Shown: positions 1 through 6,541 of the stretch, piece by piece
Position numbering within the stretch: position 1 is the first letter of the stretch
Layout: the number at the start of each line of letters is the position of its first letter
Origin: a virus
Lineage: Duplodnaviria; Heunggongvirae; Uroviricota; Caudoviricetes
IMG/VR virus record: IMGVR_UViG_2693429728_000013
DNA: 7,008 nt
Direction: 5' to 3' (one strand)
Position numbers and translations under genes: made by a program
The notes under the pieces: generated by a model
Told to the model about the DNA's origin: nothing
The model's database searches: none
The model's input: only the letters and a program-made list of their open reading frames with translations

Positions 1-224
1 GCGATTACGGTAACGACTGGCAGACGCTGGAGCTGGTGTTCACCGCCGGCAGTGCCACGGTTACTCCGAAACTGAATGGAGTGGAAGGTTCGGCATTCCA
101 GGCTATAAAAGACAGTCTGACACTGGGACTGAATGCGCTGACGCTGACGGATATTACAAAAAATGCAGCGTATGGCGTTGAGATAGAAAGTCTGGTGCTG
201 GAGATAAATGCACCGGCAGCATAA
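1..224 (+). CDS. 3' end of an upstream ORF (5' part outside window); unidentified phage late-region protein, C-terminus ...LVLEINAPAA
   Basis: Frame is open from position 3 to the TAA at 222-224 (translation begins DYGNDWQTLELVFTAGSATV...). Composition is not Q-antiterminator-like (no Cys-rich zinc motif, not basic). Product not recognised. Confidence 0.4.
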   Translation, partial: DYGNDWQTLELVFTAGSATVTPKLNGVEGSAFQAIKDSLTLGLNALTLTDITKNAAYGVEIESLVLEINAPAA

Positions 225-227
225 TAA

Positions 228-256
228 AAAAGCCAGCGCCCACTCTGAAGGACGCT
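228..256 (-). terminator. Intrinsic terminator-like hairpin oriented for the minus strand
   Basis: Inverted repeat AGCCAGCG (228-235) / CGCTGGCT (249-256) around a 13-nt loop. On the plus strand it is preceded by an A6 tract, so on the minus strand the stem is followed by TTTTTTATT. No T-run follows it on the plus strand. Confidence 0.4.
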
Positions 257-330
257 GGCTAAAACGGGTAGATGTACTTCACATGATACTTATATCTGGC
301 AGTACATTTTCTGACAGACAGTGACGGATG

Positions 331-358
331 TTGTCAAGATATTGTGTCATTTATAACC
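331..358 (+). promoter_or_regulatory. Candidate sigma70-like promoter (possible late-promoter analogue)
   Basis: TTGTCA at 331-336 followed by TATAAC/ATAACC at about 352-358 (15-16 nt spacer); sits about 80 nt upstream of a strong plus-strand terminator. Motif match by eye only. Confidence 0.2.
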
Positions 359-436
359 TGAATCAGGGGTTGGTCGGAATGTTATCTGGCATTTTTAGCA
401 GAGCCTGAATGCCATAATCACGGCTCCCGGAGTTGG

Positions 437-474
437 CCGTCAGTGGGTGACACTGGCGGTTTTTTTGTTTTTCT
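437..474 (+). terminator. Rho-independent terminator immediately upstream of the holin gene
   Basis: Stem CCGTCAGTG (437-445) / CACTGGCGG (451-459) with one G-U pair, 5-nt loop GGTGA, followed by TTTTTTTGTTTTT (460-472). Confidence 0.6.
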
Positions 475-516
475 TTACTTTCATTTTCTGTCGGCGGTGA
501 CGGAGACATACATCAG

Positions 517-723
517 ATGGAAAAAATCACAACGGGTGTGTCATACACCACGTCAGCGGTGGGGACGGGATACTGGTTACTGCAGCTGCTGGACAAAGTC
601 TCTCCGTCCCAGTGGGTGGCAATAGGTGTACTGGGGAGTCTGCTGTTTGGCCTGCTGACGTATCTGACTAACCTGTATTTCAAAATCAGGGAGGACCGCC
701 GTAAGACGGCGCGGGGAGACTAA
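517..723 (+). CDS. S: Holin S, class II / pinholin family (phage 21 S21 / Stx-phage 933W type)
   Basis: 68-aa [71 protein letters not shown]: two hydrophobic helices and a charged C-terminal tail, closely resembling pinholin S21 as recalled. GGAGA 10 nt upstream of the ATG. Lies upstream of a SAR endolysin, the usual pinholin partner. Confidence 0.85.
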
Positions 724-727
724 AGCG

Positions 728-1705
728 ATGAAGAAAAAATACGAACTGGTTGTTAAAGAGATAAATAATTACCCGGATAAGATTGCTGTTACTGTGGCAC
801 TTGAAATTGGCGGGCATCCGTCGTTGTTGTTGCCACATGTGGCGATTAGTCTTGACCGTACTGAAGGTGCCACGCTGGAGTTCTACGAAGCTGAGGCGAA
901 AAAACAGGCGAAGCAGTTTTTCATGGATATTGTTGCCGGGTTATGCGAAGGGGATGAACCGTCACCGGAAAAGCGCCCCGTAATTTTAGATGCGCAGGAT
1001 GTATTGATAACCTACAAAGGAAAGCTACCGGGAAGAATTACTTGTTCTCTGAAGATGCCGCCGTCAACACTGCGGTCAGAAAAAGATGATGTTGAATCGC
1101 GTATTGAAAAACTGGAGTGCTATATCGCTGAATTGAAAAAAAGCACCCCAACAAAAAATGAGGTGCTTGCAGCAGACGAAATGAAAGAAGCTATTCCTGA
1201 TCGCGCGGCGAATCTAAGCTGCGCTTCATGGTTGAAAGAGCATCTTCAGCAGCCTGAAAAAAAACGCCGCGATGAGCAGTTTGCTGCGTTTTACGATTAT
1301 TGCCGGAAAGTGATGAGCAGAAATCTCGCAGAGTGTTTCAGTATTCATAATGATAATTTCAGTGACCTGGAATGGGAGTGTAACCGGCCATCCTTTGTTG
1401 TATCCGGTGATGCTGGGAAAATAACCATCTCAGAAAATGGAAAAGTAACACCGCCATCGCACCAGCATAGTGAGGAGCTCATTGAATTTGCCATTGATTA
1501 CCTGAAGAACAATAAAAAGCAGGGGCTGATGAAGTGCATTGGTCGTTGCATGGGATATCTGCAGATAGCTGCTGAGATTGAAGCGCTGGCCAGTGGTGCG
1601 GACAAGGATGCAGTTGTGCGGGAGGCTCTTCTTCGTGATTTTGATAATCCGCCCTTTAAAAAAAGTGCCGGCTTACTGGTTTCATCCAGGACTGACTTAT
1701 CTTAA
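728..1705 (+). CDS. Hypothetical protein, 325 aa, function unknown, embedded between holin and endolysin
   Basis: Uninterrupted 978-nt ORF. ATG lies 4 nt after the S stop (TAA 721-723) with GGGGAG at 713-718, so it is translationally coupled to S. No transmembrane segment, signal peptide or recognisable catalytic motif by eye; several Cys including a C-x3-C (KCIGRC); charged coiled-coil-like stretch (ESRIEKLECYIAELKK). Looks somewhat more AT-rich than flanking S and R by eye (not computed). Confidence 0.75.
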   Translation: MKKKYELVVKEINNYPDKIAVTVALEIGGHPSLLLPHVAISLDRTEGATLEFYEAEAKKQAKQFFMDIVAGLCEGDEPSPEKRPVILDAQDVLITYKGKLPGRITCSLKMPPSTLRSEKDDVESRIEKLECYIAELKKSTPTKNEVLAADEMKEAIPDRAANLSCASWLKEHLQQPEKKRRDEQFAAFYDYCRKVMSRNLAECFSIHNDNFSDLEWECNRPSFVVSGDAGKITISENGKVTPPSHQHSEELIEFAIDYLKNNKKQGLMKCIGRCMGYLQIAAEIEALASGADKDAVVREALLRDFDNPPFKKSAGLLVSSRTDLS

Positions 1706-1760
1706 AGGACGTATATAAGCTGGCTCGTTATCTGTTGCCGATAAATCCTGATAAATATCC

Positions 1761-2294
1761 ATGAACACCAAAATCAAATACGGCCTGTCGGCTGCTGTTC
1801 TGGCGCTGATTGCCGCTGGTGCGCCTGCGCCTGACATTCTCGACCAGTTTCTGGATGAAAAGGAAGGTAACCACACCACGGCATACCGTGATGGTGCGGG
1901 GATCTGGACCATCTGCCGTGGTGCCATCATGGTGGATGGTAAACCTGTTGTTCCAGGCATGAAGTTGTCGAAGGCAAAATGCGCTCAGGTTAACGCCATT
2001 GAGCGTAATAAGGCGCTGGCATGGGTGGAGAAAAACATCAAAGTGCCATTGACCGAACCACAGAAAGCGGGGATTGCGTCATTCTGTCCGTACAACATTG
2101 GCCCCGGTAAGTGTTTCCCGTCGACGTTTTATAAACGAATTAATGCAGGCGATCGCAGGGGGGCGTGTGAGGCGATTCGCTGGTGGATTAAGGACGGTGG
2201 CAGAGACTGCCGTATTCGCTCAAACAACTGTTACGGTCAGGTATCCCGTCGCGACCAGGAGAGTGCGCTGGCGTGCTGGGGAATTGACAGATAA
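1761..2294 (+). CDS. R: SAR endolysin R (T4-lysozyme-like, GH24 family), 933W/Stx-phage type
   Basis: 177-aa ORF. N-terminal Gly/Ala-rich signal-anchor-release helix (YGLSAAVLALIAAGAPAP) followed by the catalytic triad spacing E-x8-D-x5-T (EGNHTTAYRDGAGIWT), as in T4 lysozyme E11/D20/T26. No obvious Shine-Dalgarno upstream. Confidence 0.9.
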   Translation: MNTKIKYGLSAAVLALIAAGAPAPDILDQFLDEKEGNHTTAYRDGAGIWTICRGAIMVDGKPVVPGMKLSKAKCAQVNAIERNKALAWVEKNIKVPLTEPQKAGIASFCPYNIGPGKCFPSTFYKRINAGDRRGACEAIRWWIKDGGRDCRIRSNNCYGQVSRRDQESALACWGIDR

Positions 2295-2384
2295 GCAGAA
2301 TATTTTGCTGAAAAATGCGGTTTGCTCGCACGGACGGATAACACGAAATCCTGCGAACTGACAAAAACTAAGTGAATAAAAGTA

Positions 2385-2423
2385 AAAACCCCGTTTGTTG
2401 GCTGCAAGCGGGGTTTTGTGTTT
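2385..2423 (+). terminator. Rho-independent terminator between R and Rz
   Basis: Stem AAAACCCCG (2385-2393) / CGGGGTTTT (2409-2417), extendable through TTTG/CAAG inner pairs, followed by TTTTGTGTTT. Confidence 0.55.
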
Positions 2424-2453
2424 CCTGACTCTGGAAAAGTCAAAGGAGAAAGT

Positions 2454-2591
2454 GTGTTTGATTTTAGCAAACTGATTCGGGAGATTCGAGTGATGGCTGA
2501 AAAATTATCCACCTGGAAGTTCATTCTTATCTGGCTGGTGTTTGTGATTATGGCCTCCGGTTATTTCATCGGTCAGATACGCTGGTGGTGA
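2454..2591 (+). CDS. Possible small membrane protein (45 aa), GTG start, translationally coupled to Rz
   Basis: GTG at 2454 preceded by AAAGGAG (2442-2448, 5-nt spacer). Translation MFDFSKLIREIRVMAEKLSTWKFILIWLVFVIMASGYFIGQIRWW has one predicted TM helix. TGA at 2589-2591 lies 1 nt before the Rz ATG at 2593. Below the ORF-track length cutoff; not recognised as a known family. Confidence 0.3.
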   Translation: MFDFSKLIREIRVMAEKLSTWKFILIWLVFVIMASGYFIGQIRWW

Positions 2592-2592
2592 A

Positions 2593-3060
2593 ATGAACCG
2601 CGTACTGTGCGTGGTCATCATTGCCCTGCTGGTGGCCTGTGGTGCGCTTAGTCTGGGGCTGAATCATTACCGTGATAACGCCATAACCTACAAAGAGCAG
2701 CGCGATAAAAAAGTCAGTGAGCTGGAGCAGGCAAATGCAACCATTACTGATATGCAGCAGCGCCAGCGTGATGTTGCTGCACTTGATGCCAGATACTCGA
2801 GGGAATTAGCCGATGCGAGAGCTGAAAATGAAACTCTTCGCGCTGACGTTGCCGCTGGTCGTAAGCGCCTGCGGATCAACGCCACCTGTCCAGGCTCCGT
2901 GCGTGAAGCCCCCACCACCTCCGGCGTGGATAATGCAACCGGCCCCCAACTGGCAGACACCGTTACACGGGATTATTTCACCCTCAGAGAGCGGCTGATG
3001 ACGATGCACAAGCAACTGGAAGGGGCACAGGACTATATCCGCACTCAGTGCCTGAAATAA
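2593..3060 (+). CDS. Rz: Rz i-spanin (inner-membrane spanin subunit)
   Basis: 155-aa ORF with N-terminal TM helix and NHYRDNAITYK...DVAALDA...DYFTLRERL motifs closely matching lambda Rz as recalled; position downstream of R. Confidence 0.9.
   Translation: MNRVLCVVIIALLVACGALSLGLNHYRDNAITYKEQRDKKVSELEQANATITDMQQRQRDVAALDARYSRELADARAENETLRADVAAGRKRLRINATCPGSVREAPTTSGVDNATGPQLADTVTRDYFTLRERLMTMHKQLEGAQDYIRTQCLK
2813..2998 (+). CDS. Rz1: Rz1 o-spanin (outer-membrane lipoprotein spanin subunit), embedded in the +1 frame of Rz
   Basis: 61-aa ORF entirely inside Rz: MRELKMKLFALTLPLVVSACGS (lipobox VSAC) followed by a Pro-rich segment VKPPPPPAWIMQPAPNWQTP, as in lambda Rz1. Confidence 0.85.
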   Translation: MRELKMKLFALTLPLVVSACGSTPPVQAPCVKPPPPPAWIMQPAPNWQTPLHGIISPSESG

Positions 3061-3684
3061 GTTTTGTTGATGCGCCGTATCGTCGCTGTATTCCCTCATT
3101 AACAGAGACCGCAGCCCGACAGGGAGACTCCTCTGCGCGAGTGTGCGGGGATAATCAAAAACGATACACACTGGGGTTTACCGCGTTAACGGAGCGCGGC
3201 GTTGTCCCCTCATAGTCGCCTGTCCGGTGCGATGGTGGAAGAAGCCGGATGTTTATCACTATTAATTGATGACACAGAAATGGATTCATTGAATTTCAGC
3301 ACGTTTTTGTATTCGTGTTATTGAACATCTGTTTATTTTACTTTTAACATATTGATAATAAAAAGAGCTGTAAATCTTTAGATGAGTCGATTTTGTCCGG
3401 GGAAGTTCAAATGGATTTTATGCTGACGGTTTCTGGTGTGGTTATCCTGTCCATTGCTTATACTGCAGATAAATATGGCTGCCATTTGTTATCACGTATT
3501 GGCGCTTATTGTTCGTTGATGCTGATTTTCTCGTCGCTTTTTTTTTGAGTAAGTTATATTAATTATAACAAATAATTTTCTGTGTTATTTTTTCAGGCTA
3601 TCCCGTCAGAGGGGAAGCCTGTACTGCCGGGGAGCGAATGGAAAACTGATGTGTCCGGTAACTGCGTGTTCTGTGAACACCATG

Positions 3685-4258: not shown

Positions 4259-4804
4259 ATGGAAGTCAACAAAAAGCAGCTGGCTGACATTTTCGGTGCG
4301 AGTATCCGTACCATTCAGAACTGGCAGGAACAGGGAATGCCCGTTCTGCGAGGCGGTGGCAAGGGTAATGAGGTGCTTTATGACTCTGCCGCCGTCATAA
4401 AATGGTATGCCGAAAGGGATGCTGAAATTGAGAACGAAAAGCTGCGCCGGGAAGTTGAAGAACTGCGGCAGGCCAGCGAGACAGATCTCCAGCCAGGGAC
4501 TATTGAGTACGAACGCCATCGACTTACGCGTGCGCAGGCCGACGCACAGGAGCTGAAAAATGCCAGAGACTCCGCTGAAGTGGTGGAAACCGCATTCTGT
4601 ACTTTCGTGCTGTCGCGGATCGCAGGTGAAATTGCCAGTATTCTCGACGGGATCCCCCTGTCGGTGCAGCGGCGTTTTCCGGAACTGGAAAACCGACATG
4701 TTGATTTCCTGAAACGGGATATCATCAAAGCCATGAACAAAGCAGCCGCGCTGGATGAACTGATACCGGGGTTGCTGAGTGAATATATCGAACAGTCAGG
4801 TTAA
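4259..4804 (+). CDS. Nu1: Terminase small subunit Nu1
   Basis: 181-aa ORF MEVNKKQLADIFGASIRTIQNWQEQGMPVLRGGGKGNEVLYDSAAVIKWYAERDAEIENEKL..., essentially identical to lambda gpNu1 as recalled (N-terminal winged-HTH DNA-binding region). Immediately downstream of cosB. Confidence 0.95.
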   Translation: MEVNKKQLADIFGASIRTIQNWQEQGMPVLRGGGKGNEVLYDSAAVIKWYAERDAEIENEKLRREVEELRQASETDLQPGTIEYERHRLTRAQADAQELKNARDSAEVVETAFCTFVLSRIAGEIASILDGIPLSVQRRFPELENRHVDFLKRDIIKAMNKAAALDELIPGLLSEYIEQSG

Positions 4805-5560
4805 CAGGCTGCGGCATTTTGTCCGCGCCGGGCTTCGCTCACTGTTCAGGCCGGAGCCACAGACCGCCGTTGAATGGGCGGATGCCAATTACTATCTCCC
4901 GAAAGAATCCGCATACCAGGAAGGGCGCTGGGAAACACTGCCCTTTCAGCGGGCCATCATGAATGCGATGGGCAGCGACTACATCCGTGAGGTGAATGTG
5001 GTGAAGTCTGCCCGTGTCGGTTATTCCAAAATGCTGCTGGGTGTTTATGCCTACTTTATAGAGCATAAGCAGCGCAACACCCTTCTCTGGTTGCCGACGG
5101 ATGGTGATGCCGAGAACTTTATGAAAACCCACGTTGAGCCGACCATCCGCGATATTCCGTCGCTGCTGGCGCTGGCTCCGTGGTATGGCAAAAAGCACCG
5201 GGATAACACGCTCACTATGAAGCGTTTTTCCAATGGTCGTGGCTTCTGGTGCCTGGGCGGTAAAGCGGCAAAAAACTACCGTGAAAAGTCGGTGGATGTG
5301 GCGGGTTATGATGAACTTGCTGCCTTTGATGAGGATATTGAACAGGAAGGCTCTCCGACGTTCCTGGGTGACAAGCGTATTGAAGGCTCGGTCTGGCCAA
5401 AGTCCATCCGTGGCTCCACGCCCAAAGTGAGAGGCACCTGCCAGATTGAGCGTGCAGCCAGTGAATCCCCGCATTTTATGCGTTTTCATGTTGCCTGTCC
5501 GCACTGCGGGGAGGAGCAGTATCTTAAATTTGGCGATAAAGAGACGTCGTTTGGCCTCAA
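4580..5560. repeat. Tandem direct repeat, copy 1 (981 bp; Nu1 3' part plus A 5' part)
   Basis: Sequence from GTGGTGGAAACCGCATTCTG... through ...GTCGTTTGGCCTCAA recurs at an offset of exactly 981 bp. About six single-base differences between copies (e.g. CATCCGTGAG vs CGTCCGCGAG, CGTGTCGG vs CGTGTTGG, TACTTTATA vs TACTTCATA, CCTTCTCTGG vs CCTTATCTGG). Confidence 0.9.
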
Positions 5561-5693
5561 GTGGTGGAAACCGCATTCTGTACTTTCGTGCTGTCGCGGA
5601 TCGCAGGTGAAATTGCCAGTATTCTCGACGGGATCCCCCTGTCGGTGCAGCGGCGTTTTCCGGAACTGGAAAACCGACATGTTGATTTCCTGA
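4779..5693 (+). pseudogene. A: Terminase large subunit A, first copy, interrupted by the duplication junction at about 5560/5561
   Basis: GTG start overlapping the Nu1 3' end as in lambda. First ~264 codons read as gpA (MNISNSQVNRLRHF...KSARVGYSK...GDKETSFGLKW), then the frame runs into the duplicated Nu1 sequence out of frame (WKPHSVLSCCRG...) and stops at 5693. Confidence 0.7.
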
Positions 5694-5785
5694 AACGGGA
5701 TATCATCAAAGCCATGAACAAAGCAGCCGCGCTGGATGAACTGATACCGGGGTTGCTGAGTGAATATATCGAACAGTCAGGTTAA
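5561..5785 (+). pseudogene. Duplicated C-terminal fragment of Nu1 (about 74 codons, lacks the N-terminal DNA-binding part)
   Basis: Identical to Nu1 residues VETAFCTFVLSRIAGEIASILDG...EYIEQSG; same reading frame as Nu1 (offset 981 = 3 x 327); no native start or RBS. Confidence 0.7.
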
Positions 5786-6541
5786 CAGGCTGCGGCATTT
5801 TGTCCGCGCCGGGCTTCGCTCACTGTTCAGGCCGGAGCCACAGACCGCCGTTGAATGGGCGGATGCCAATTACTATCTCCCGAAAGAATCCGCATACCAG
5901 GAAGGGCGCTGGGAAACACTGCCCTTTCAGCGGGCCATCATGAATGCGATGGGCAGTGACTACGTCCGCGAGGTGAATGTGGTGAAGTCTGCCCGTGTTG
6001 GTTATTCCAAAATGCTGCTGGGTGTTTATGCCTACTTCATAGAGCATAAGCAGCGCAACACCCTTATCTGGTTGCCGACGGATGGTGATGCCGAGAACTT
6101 TATGAAAACCCACGTTGAGCCGACCATCCGCGATATTCCGTCGCTGCTGGCGCTGGCTCCGTGGTATGGCAAAAAGCACCGGGATAACACGCTCACTATG
6201 AAGCGTTTTTCCAATGGTCGTGGCTTCTGGTGCCTGGGCGGTAAAGCGGCAAAAAACTACCGTGAAAAGTCGGTGGATGTGGCGGGTTATGATGAACTTG
6301 CTGCCTTTGATGAGGATATTGAACAGGAAGGCTCTCCGACGTTCCTGGGTGACAAGCGTATTGAAGGCTCGGTCTGGCCAAAGTCCATCCGTGGCTCCAC
6401 GCCCAAAGTGAGAGGCACCTGCCAGATTGAGCGTGCAGCCAGTGAATCCCCGCATTTTATGCGTTTTCATGTTGCCTGTCCGCACTGCGGGGAGGAGCAG
6501 TATCTTAAATTTGGCGATAAAGAGACGTCGTTTGGCCTCAA
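5561..6541. repeat. Tandem direct repeat, copy 2 (981 bp)
   Basis: Same as copy 1 at offset +981. Junction has microhomology: CTGAAGTGG in Nu1 versus CTCAAATGG in A. Confidence 0.9.

Follow-up and report, generated by a model that had tools for sequence, protein, structure and literature searches.

The window, that is the whole stretch of 7,008 nt analysed here, is a lambdoid prophage late region. Its 5′ part is the 3′ end of a SASA-type esterase gene, which is followed by the holin gene S, the open reading frame (ORF) under study, the endolysin gene R, the spanin genes Rz/Rz1, a DUF3950/YlcI-YnfO gene on the minus strand between Rz and Nu1, Nu1 itself and the start of the large terminase gene. 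S (517–723, plus strand) codes for a phage-21-type class II holin (pinholin) of 68 aa, recognised by Pfam PF04971 (Phage_holin_2_1; E 1.4e-32) and by PHROG holin families. R (1761–2294, plus strand) encodes an endolysin of 177 aa (PF00959, Phage_lysozyme; E 2.6e-24). Inspection of its sequence showed a hydrophobic N-terminus (MNTKIKYGLSAAVLALIAAGAPAP) that resembles a SAR segment, and an E-x8-D-x5-T motif. The Rz spanin gene (2593–3060, plus strand; PF03245, E 2.2e-47) contains an embedded Rz1-like ORF at 2813–2998. A GC-rich hairpin of 14 pairs, terminator-like and without a T-run, lies just after R (2385–2417), and a 57-aa ORF between R and Rz (2418–2591) matches phrog_6632, a group of unknown function. 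A search of Rfam at gathering thresholds returned nothing within the window.

The ORF under study, assigned below to the YdfR family as a frameshifted allele of its long form, occupies 728–1705 on the plus strand, starts with ATG and encodes 325 aa. It begins 4 nt after the S stop codon and ends 55 nt before the R start, exactly as initially annotated, and the arrangement of S stop, 4 nt and ATG was conserved in all six relatives examined, K-12 Qin among them. The Shine-Dalgarno sequence GGGGAGA attributed to the gene was located by reading the sequence at 713–719 (plus strand), within the final codons of S. The protein has a pI of 5.7 and a maximal Kyte-Doolittle hydropathy of 1.09 over 19 residues; no transmembrane segment was detected at this segment length, in agreement with the annotation of a soluble product. 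The GC content of the gene is 45.4%, compared with 54% for S, R and Rz. When dN/dS was estimated by the Nei-Gojobori method against homologues from E. coli and Salmonella, values of 0.25–0.34 were obtained for the N-terminal domain, 0.14–0.31 for the C-terminal domain and 0.36–0.85 for the variable middle. By these estimates both end domains are under purifying selection, which supports the view that the ORF is a real gene.

In a consensus scan no sigma-70-like promoter was found on the plus strand of positions 1–3400, nor a terminator-like site on that strand in the interval that separates the gene from R; overall, both kinds of site were about as numerous as expected from shuffled sequence. 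The gene is probably transcribed together with S, R and Rz from the late promoter, in line with the co-expression that the initial annotation had assumed, and its product is almost certainly cytoplasmic. No recognisable Shine-Dalgarno sequence precedes the ATG of R (…ccgataaatcctgataaatatccATG; 1706–1760), and the strong GGGGAGA site serves the YdfR-family gene instead. The inserted gene may therefore alter the translation of R.

Family identity and modular architecture

The gene is almost certainly a long-form member of the YdfR/DUF1327 family, a lambdoid-prophage late-operon accessory protein family. Residues 1–100 matched Pfam DUF1327 (PF07041) with 132.2 bits against a gathering cut-off of 25 (E 8.2e-39), covering profile positions 1–88 of 93. 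In BLASTP the K-12 protein YdfR was 41% identical to the window protein over aa 1–74 (E 2e-17), and the RefSeq name for the homologues is 'YdfR family protein'. Every feature by which membership could be checked, namely the PF07041 score, the similarity to YdfR and the genomic slot, agreed with this assignment. The whole protein matched phrog_1085 (E 1e-168) and parts of it seven further PHROGs, all eight being listed as 'unknown function'. The earlier statement that the protein lacks any recognisable motif is thus superseded by the DUF1327 match.

Several other identities were considered and rejected. A holin, antiholin, spanin or endolysin does not fit the low hydropathy maximum or the lack of a match to any Pfam or PHROG lysis family. 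The sole NCBIfam result, HpnC at 12.8 bits, was judged a chance match. None of the families in the PADLOC-DB defence models was matched at E values up to 1, and sequence searches of the PDB, with the single protein as well as with a profile (A3), gave nothing below E 0.07. In the literature searched, no paper was found that joins DUF1327 with a holin and an endolysin, and ydfR is absent from the main text of the envelope-integrity screen to which it has been linked by citation.

The architecture of the protein was derived from BLAST comparisons and an alignment of 120 homologues. The N-terminal DUF1327 domain (aa 1–105; 728–1042, plus strand; PF07041) is predicted to consist of three strands and a helix, with an AlphaFold2 (AF2) pLDDT of about 57–86 over aa 1–70. 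It is followed by a coiled-coil-like helix (aa 118–140, ESRIEKLECYIAELKK; 1079–1147, plus strand), which corresponds to the coiled-coil-like stretch of the initial annotation. This segment is predicted helical, contains the invariant residue L136 and is the sole segment that aligned across all forms. An optional insert (aa 141–180; 1148–1267, plus strand; alignment A1) occurs in some long forms only and is missing from those of 296, 287 and 268 aa. The conserved C-terminal domain, predicted to comprise three strands plus helices and shared with Salmonella, spans aa 215–329 in intact proteins; its in-frame part in the window is aa 215–312 (1370–1663, plus strand). No Pfam family covers this domain, which is also found as a stand-alone gene.

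Among the homologues compared, the modules recombine freely. The N-domain of the window protein is 60% identical to that of the 296-aa form and the C-domain 92%; with the 305-aa form it shares 93% identity in the N-domain but no relationship in the C-terminal part. In a common variant, S is followed by a 213-aa gene comprising the coiled coil and the C-domain and then by a separate 75-aa DUF1327 gene. Within this one slot the N- and C-terminal modules can be joined in a single protein, encoded separately or arranged in reverse gene order, and in Salmonella they are again fused; on this Rosetta-stone evidence they would seem to act together. Odd members of the family were also seen (P0047, P0054 and P0087): tandem DUF1327 domains in one protein of 196–207 aa, and a 184-aa holin-DUF1327 fusion, which may be a read-through or assembly artefact. 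An internal duplication, in which one β3-α unit would have given rise to both the N- and the C-domain, was discarded at an hhalign probability of 0.2%.

An exhaustive phmmer search with residues 106–325 against 1.84 billion cluster representatives yielded 28 proteins. A subsequent profile search added a branch from Salmonella enterica, all members of which are annotated as hypothetical and none of which has a Pfam domain. Relatives of the C-domain were confined to prophage proteins of E. coli and Salmonella. Across both, ten columns of the domain are invariant (H, G, L, Q, A, K, W, P, Y and L). The Salmonella N-domain aligned to DUF1327 with an hhalign probability of 87% (E 4e-6). On these alignments the three-part long form is an architecture common to E. 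coli and Salmonella, and the short YdfR looks like a reduced derivative of it. The cysteines that the initial annotation had pointed out in the C-terminal half differ in their conservation: C274 (in GRCMG) lies in a near-invariant column, whereas C218 (in ECNRP) and C270 are not conserved beyond close E. coli relatives.

The AF2 model of the window protein, built from 38 E. coli sequences, reached a pLDDT of 47.9 and was too poor for a fold search; moderate confidence was attained in the N-domain alone, with its three strands and helix. The C-domain was therefore modelled on P0063, a homologue that occurs naturally on its own and shares 96% identity with window residues 177–312, with an input of 74 sequences including those from Salmonella. 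This model had a pLDDT of 78.7 overall and of 76–95 across the C-domain, and consists of a hairpin of helices, then a sheet of three strands and four further helices. Foldseek comparison with the PDB gave only E values of at least 1; the best match in BFVD (E 0.023 at a TM score of 0.25) is no credible relative. Profile and structure searches, as initially proposed, thus explain aa 1–100 as DUF1327 but provide no fold match for the C-domain. As far as the predicted model can tell, the C-domain is a conserved, unnamed unit without counterpart in PDB or BFVD.

Distribution and genomic slot

Part of the gene was matched in 2389 of 5426 complete E. coli genomes, so that the family is present in 44% of them; at least 80% of its length was matched in 491. 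Among 367 phage records with this S/R pair, 89 carry a YdfR-family gene, and the C-terminal domain occurs in just five phage records (87–100% identity). In the records sampled from these 367, three arrangements of the S–R span were distinguished. S and R are adjacent (about 745 nt) in 933W, VT2-Sakai and most Stx2a phages, a short ydfR separates them (about 1140 nt) in Stx1a and Stx2c phages, and a few longer forms exist besides; in the window the span measures 1778 nt. The notion that S and R are normally adjacent therefore applies to the 933W/Sakai types but not in general, the YdfR-family gene being common in the slot and present there in K-12 Qin (essQ-ydfR-rrrQ-rzpQ), in the same position as in the window. 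Compared with the gene order of 933W/Sakai-type phages, the YdfR-family gene is best described as an insertion. The initial annotation had also considered that the gene might prove a constant member of this cassette type with a known function; it is indeed a common occupant of the slot, but one from a family to which no function has been assigned.

The gene shares some traits with morons, namely its distinct GC content and its presence or absence between otherwise similar phages. Yet a classical moron in the sense of Hendrix and Juhala would carry its own promoter and terminator, neither of which was found in the consensus scan, and this designation was therefore dropped.

The holin-endolysin slot was kept at all E. 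coli loci examined. The synteny comparison differed for Salmonella, where the homologues are located between Q and the holin gene, the holin belonging to either PF04971 or PF16080. On the loci compared, the gene stays linked to the beginning of the late operon, but a position between S and R is not obligatory. At one Salmonella enterica locus (L009, 3157–4469), a pertussis-toxin-S1-like gene (faint Pfam match) and a small gene lie directly upstream of the YdfR-like gene. These two genes sit between the early region and the holin, where Stx phages carry stx.

In E. coli O55:H7 CB9615 (L013, 6501–6836) and strain 2014C-3061 (L014, 3733–4068), the annotation covers the first 336 nt of an intact 990-nt homologue. 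RefSeq/PGAP labels it a partial pseudogene, 'missing C-terminus', although the full ORF is open and has the A6 sequence described below. The RefSeq annotation of the intact long form is thus inconsistent. Several relatives have a minus-strand ORF of 86–105 aa that comes after the YdfR-like gene or overlaps it at its 3′ end (L002 6902–7189, L007 5854–6114, L009 5599–5916, L011 5849–6145 and L026 2168–2428). These ORFs do not represent a conserved partner gene: the L007 and L011 products alone are weakly similar (27%), and the window has no such ORF.

The 3′ end of the gene and the state of the prophage

At 1658–1664 (plus strand) the window gene contains a run of seven A, one more than its relatives. 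Phage Stx2_95 has six A at the same site, as does every one of the 32 matches from complete genomes with 99% identity or more. The extra A shifts the frame and leads to the stop codon at 1703–1705. When one A was removed, translation gave the family tail VPAYWFHPGLTYLKGRI and an intact protein of 329 aa. The ancestral tail now lies out of frame at 1665–1718 (plus strand), within an ORF at 1578–1718, and ends with the stop codon 1716–1718. The 3′ end as initially called therefore does exist, but the family-typical end is in another frame. In the window allele the 17-aa tail is replaced. With it, four of the ten invariant residues (W, P, Y and L) are lost, as are a near-invariant G and the final helix of the structure prediction.

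At least 22 contigs, drawn from several assemblies, encode the exact 325-aa protein (P0240), which is listed in 42 collection blocks. This rules out a one-off sequencing error; A7 is a circulating allele. Programmed frameshifting or transcriptional slippage at A7 was also considered, and no evidence for either was found; a +1 shift would be required to restore the frame. Six A-runs of 6–8 bases lie within the gene (at 734, 899, 1136, 1153, 1257 and 1658), a density that favours frameshifts. We infer that these runs probably account for the many truncated or split relatives in the databases.

In two assemblies with the same 325-aa allele (L022 and L023, 1–6000), only about 2.5 kb separate a phage integrase gene from those of the SASA esterase and S, and neither a Q antiterminator nor an early region was called in between. 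Given the nearby integrase and the missing Q and early-region calls, this prophage appears degraded, with a late operon that lacks its activator. With the loss of the conserved 17-aa tail and its position in a degraded prophage lineage, the window copy is probably impaired.

The terminase region of the window contains a tandem direct repeat of 981 nt (4575–5555 and 5556–6536) with six mismatches, clustered at 4976–5085. The 3′ portion of Nu1 and the 5′ portion of the gene for the large terminase are duplicated in this way, which results in an intact Nu1 (4259–4804), a truncated terminase ORF (4779–5693), a second, C-terminal Nu1 fragment (5561–5785) and probably an intact terminase that starts near 5760. 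No such duplication is present in the closest complete genomes or in the other assemblies that share the ydfR allele; these relatives have a 6030-nt span for the 7008-nt query and a terminase of 641 aa.

These observations raise the question whether the window copy is an inert, decaying gene in a defective prophage with a silent late operon, irrespective of what the family does. We regard this as a serious possibility that falls somewhat short of even chances. The removal of the invariant tail residues speaks for it, as do the integrase close to S in assemblies of the same allele, the A-runs and the truncated relatives, and the disruptive duplication in the terminase region. Against such advanced decay, 312 of 329 residues are still in frame and include the whole DUF1327 domain, which on its own is the commonest form of the family. 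Moreover, the allele is identical to intact copies (99.9%) apart from the A-run, so the frameshift is recent.

Possible functions and comparison with known systems

Phage lysis can be controlled by accessory proteins: the soluble LydB of P1 antagonises the holin LydA, and RIII of T4 stabilises holin inhibition. The YdfR-family protein might similarly be a cytoplasmic regulator of lysis timing that acts on the cytoplasmic tail of the pinholin or on the release of the SAR endolysin. The gene always adjoins the lysis genes of the late operon, whether in E. coli or in Salmonella, and such persistent linkage in two genera would fit a lysis-related role; the Shine-Dalgarno sequence within the end of S couples its synthesis to that of S, and the insertion leaves R without an obvious ribosome-binding sequence of this type, so the ratio of S to R could change. 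However, 933W/Sakai-type phages lack the gene while their S and R are about 90% identical. Cassettes this similar indicate that the gene is dispensable for lysis. Together with the Salmonella homologues, which are located upstream of holins from two unrelated families, they argue against a core role in the process. The protein also has neither a membrane segment nor a match to a lysis family, and overproduction of YdfR caused no growth phenotype (PMC13232886). Taken together, a lysis regulator is unlikely.

A second alternative is a phage-conflict factor, involved in superinfection exclusion, defence or anti-defence and carried as cargo of the late operon. Presence/absence polymorphism, lower GC content, strong mosaicism, a variable middle and swapped modules resemble an arms-race pattern, as do N-domain alleles of about 60% identity next to C-domains of 92%; the Salmonella copy occupies the Q–S cargo position, a site of toxins. 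Yet the defence factor proposed in the initial annotation found no counterpart among the PADLOC models, and the dN/dS values indicate purifying rather than diversifying selection. Expression from a repressed prophage is improbable for a gene without its own promoter, K-12 ydfR gave almost no RNA-seq reads during standard growth (PMC13232886), and anti-defence genes are usually early, not late. This role therefore appears distinctly improbable.

Neither the sequence nor the fold pointed to a biochemical activity, and the one experimental lead comes from a 2026 study. Its two-hybrid screen, with the RNase E paralogue RNase G (Rng) as bait, yielded residues 1–72 of YdfR; RNase E (Rne) was bound more strongly (PMC13232886). 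In two-hybrid assays the fragment bound the N-terminal domains of both Rne and Rng, and full-length K-12 YdfR interacted with Rne 1–597. Strep-tagged YdfR co-purified Rne 1–598, and the YdfR eluates held DNase-resistant nucleic acid. Overproduction changed few transcripts (PMC13232886). It is this RNase E-binding fragment of YdfR that has its conserved counterpart in the window protein.

Based on these data, the N-domain would dock on the catalytic N-terminal half of host RNase E, on RNA or on both, as reported for K-12 YdfR 1–72. The coiled coil and the C-domain would supply oligomerisation or a second contact, and the YdfR-family protein would then modulate RNA decay late in infection. Conservation of the RNase E-binding region, dispensability for lysis and the variable position between genera favour such a late-expressed cytoplasmic binder of a host factor, which acts on RNase E or RNA and not on the lysis machinery. 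We put it forward tentatively, as a possibility that is well below even chances. The link to RNase E comes from one study with overproduced K-12 YdfR, to which the N-domain of the window protein is 41% identical, and the acidic pI, unusual for an RNA-binding protein, weakens the RNA-binding reading. The small number of transcripts changed by YdfR overproduction, with growth unaffected, also weighs against the proposal, as does a C-domain for which no relative in fold or sequence emerged to suggest a role.

More speculatively, and with a low probability in our view, the long YdfR proteins could serve temperate phages as two-part adaptors in the late phase. One part, DUF1327, would dock on the catalytic core of RNase E, and the coiled coil together with the C-domain of new fold would bring a second activity or partner, so that RNA decay would be reprogrammed shortly before lysis. 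If so, the long late transcript might be protected or host mRNA destroyed, and lambdoid phages would possess in these proteins an equivalent of T4 Srd or of a RapZ-type adaptor.

YdfR/DUF1327 is a catalogued prophage family, and a specialist would recognise ydfR. Modestly new are the definition of the C-terminal domain as a unit, the finding that Salmonella conserves it at another position, and the A7 frameshift. For annotation, the product should be named YdfR-family protein and the 3′ end in the window regarded as frameshifted. The gene deserves attention because its family is present in Stx1, Stx2c and some Stx2a phages and resides within the lysis cassette that also governs the release of Shiga toxin. 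The report on RNase E binding makes its function somewhat more testable.

Among known systems, T4 Srd offers a possible analogy of function only. As cited in PMC13232886, this phage protein binds the N-terminal, catalytic half of RNase E and stimulates the decay of host mRNA (Qi et al. 2015). Srd originates from a virulent phage, and any likeness to YdfR would be one of function. The Salmonella enterica prophage proteins (such as P0170, P0157 and P0132) are true relatives with the same C-domain, a divergent DUF1327-like N-domain and a central coiled coil. They are 30–45% identical, have no Pfam match and are likewise encoded in the late operon beside lysis genes, but in the interval between Q and the holin. 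YdfR of the cryptic prophage Qin in E. coli K-12 (b1555) has a homologous N-domain and the same slot, between the class II holin gene essQ and the lysozyme gene rrrQ. It comprises 103 aa, consisting of DUF1327 and one helix, whereas the window protein has about 220 residues more (coiled coil, insert and C-domain). The ydfR stop codon overlaps the start of rrrQ, whereas a gap of 42–55 nt separates the window gene from R. The closest counterparts are the long forms of Stx2 phages, Stx2_95 (BCI50300.1) and phage 86 (orf5), which represent the same gene in the same slot. The Stx2_95 copy is 96.4% identical to the window gene at the nucleotide level over its full length. Both copies, annotated as hypothetical or YdfR family, retain A6 and the intact 329-aa frame.
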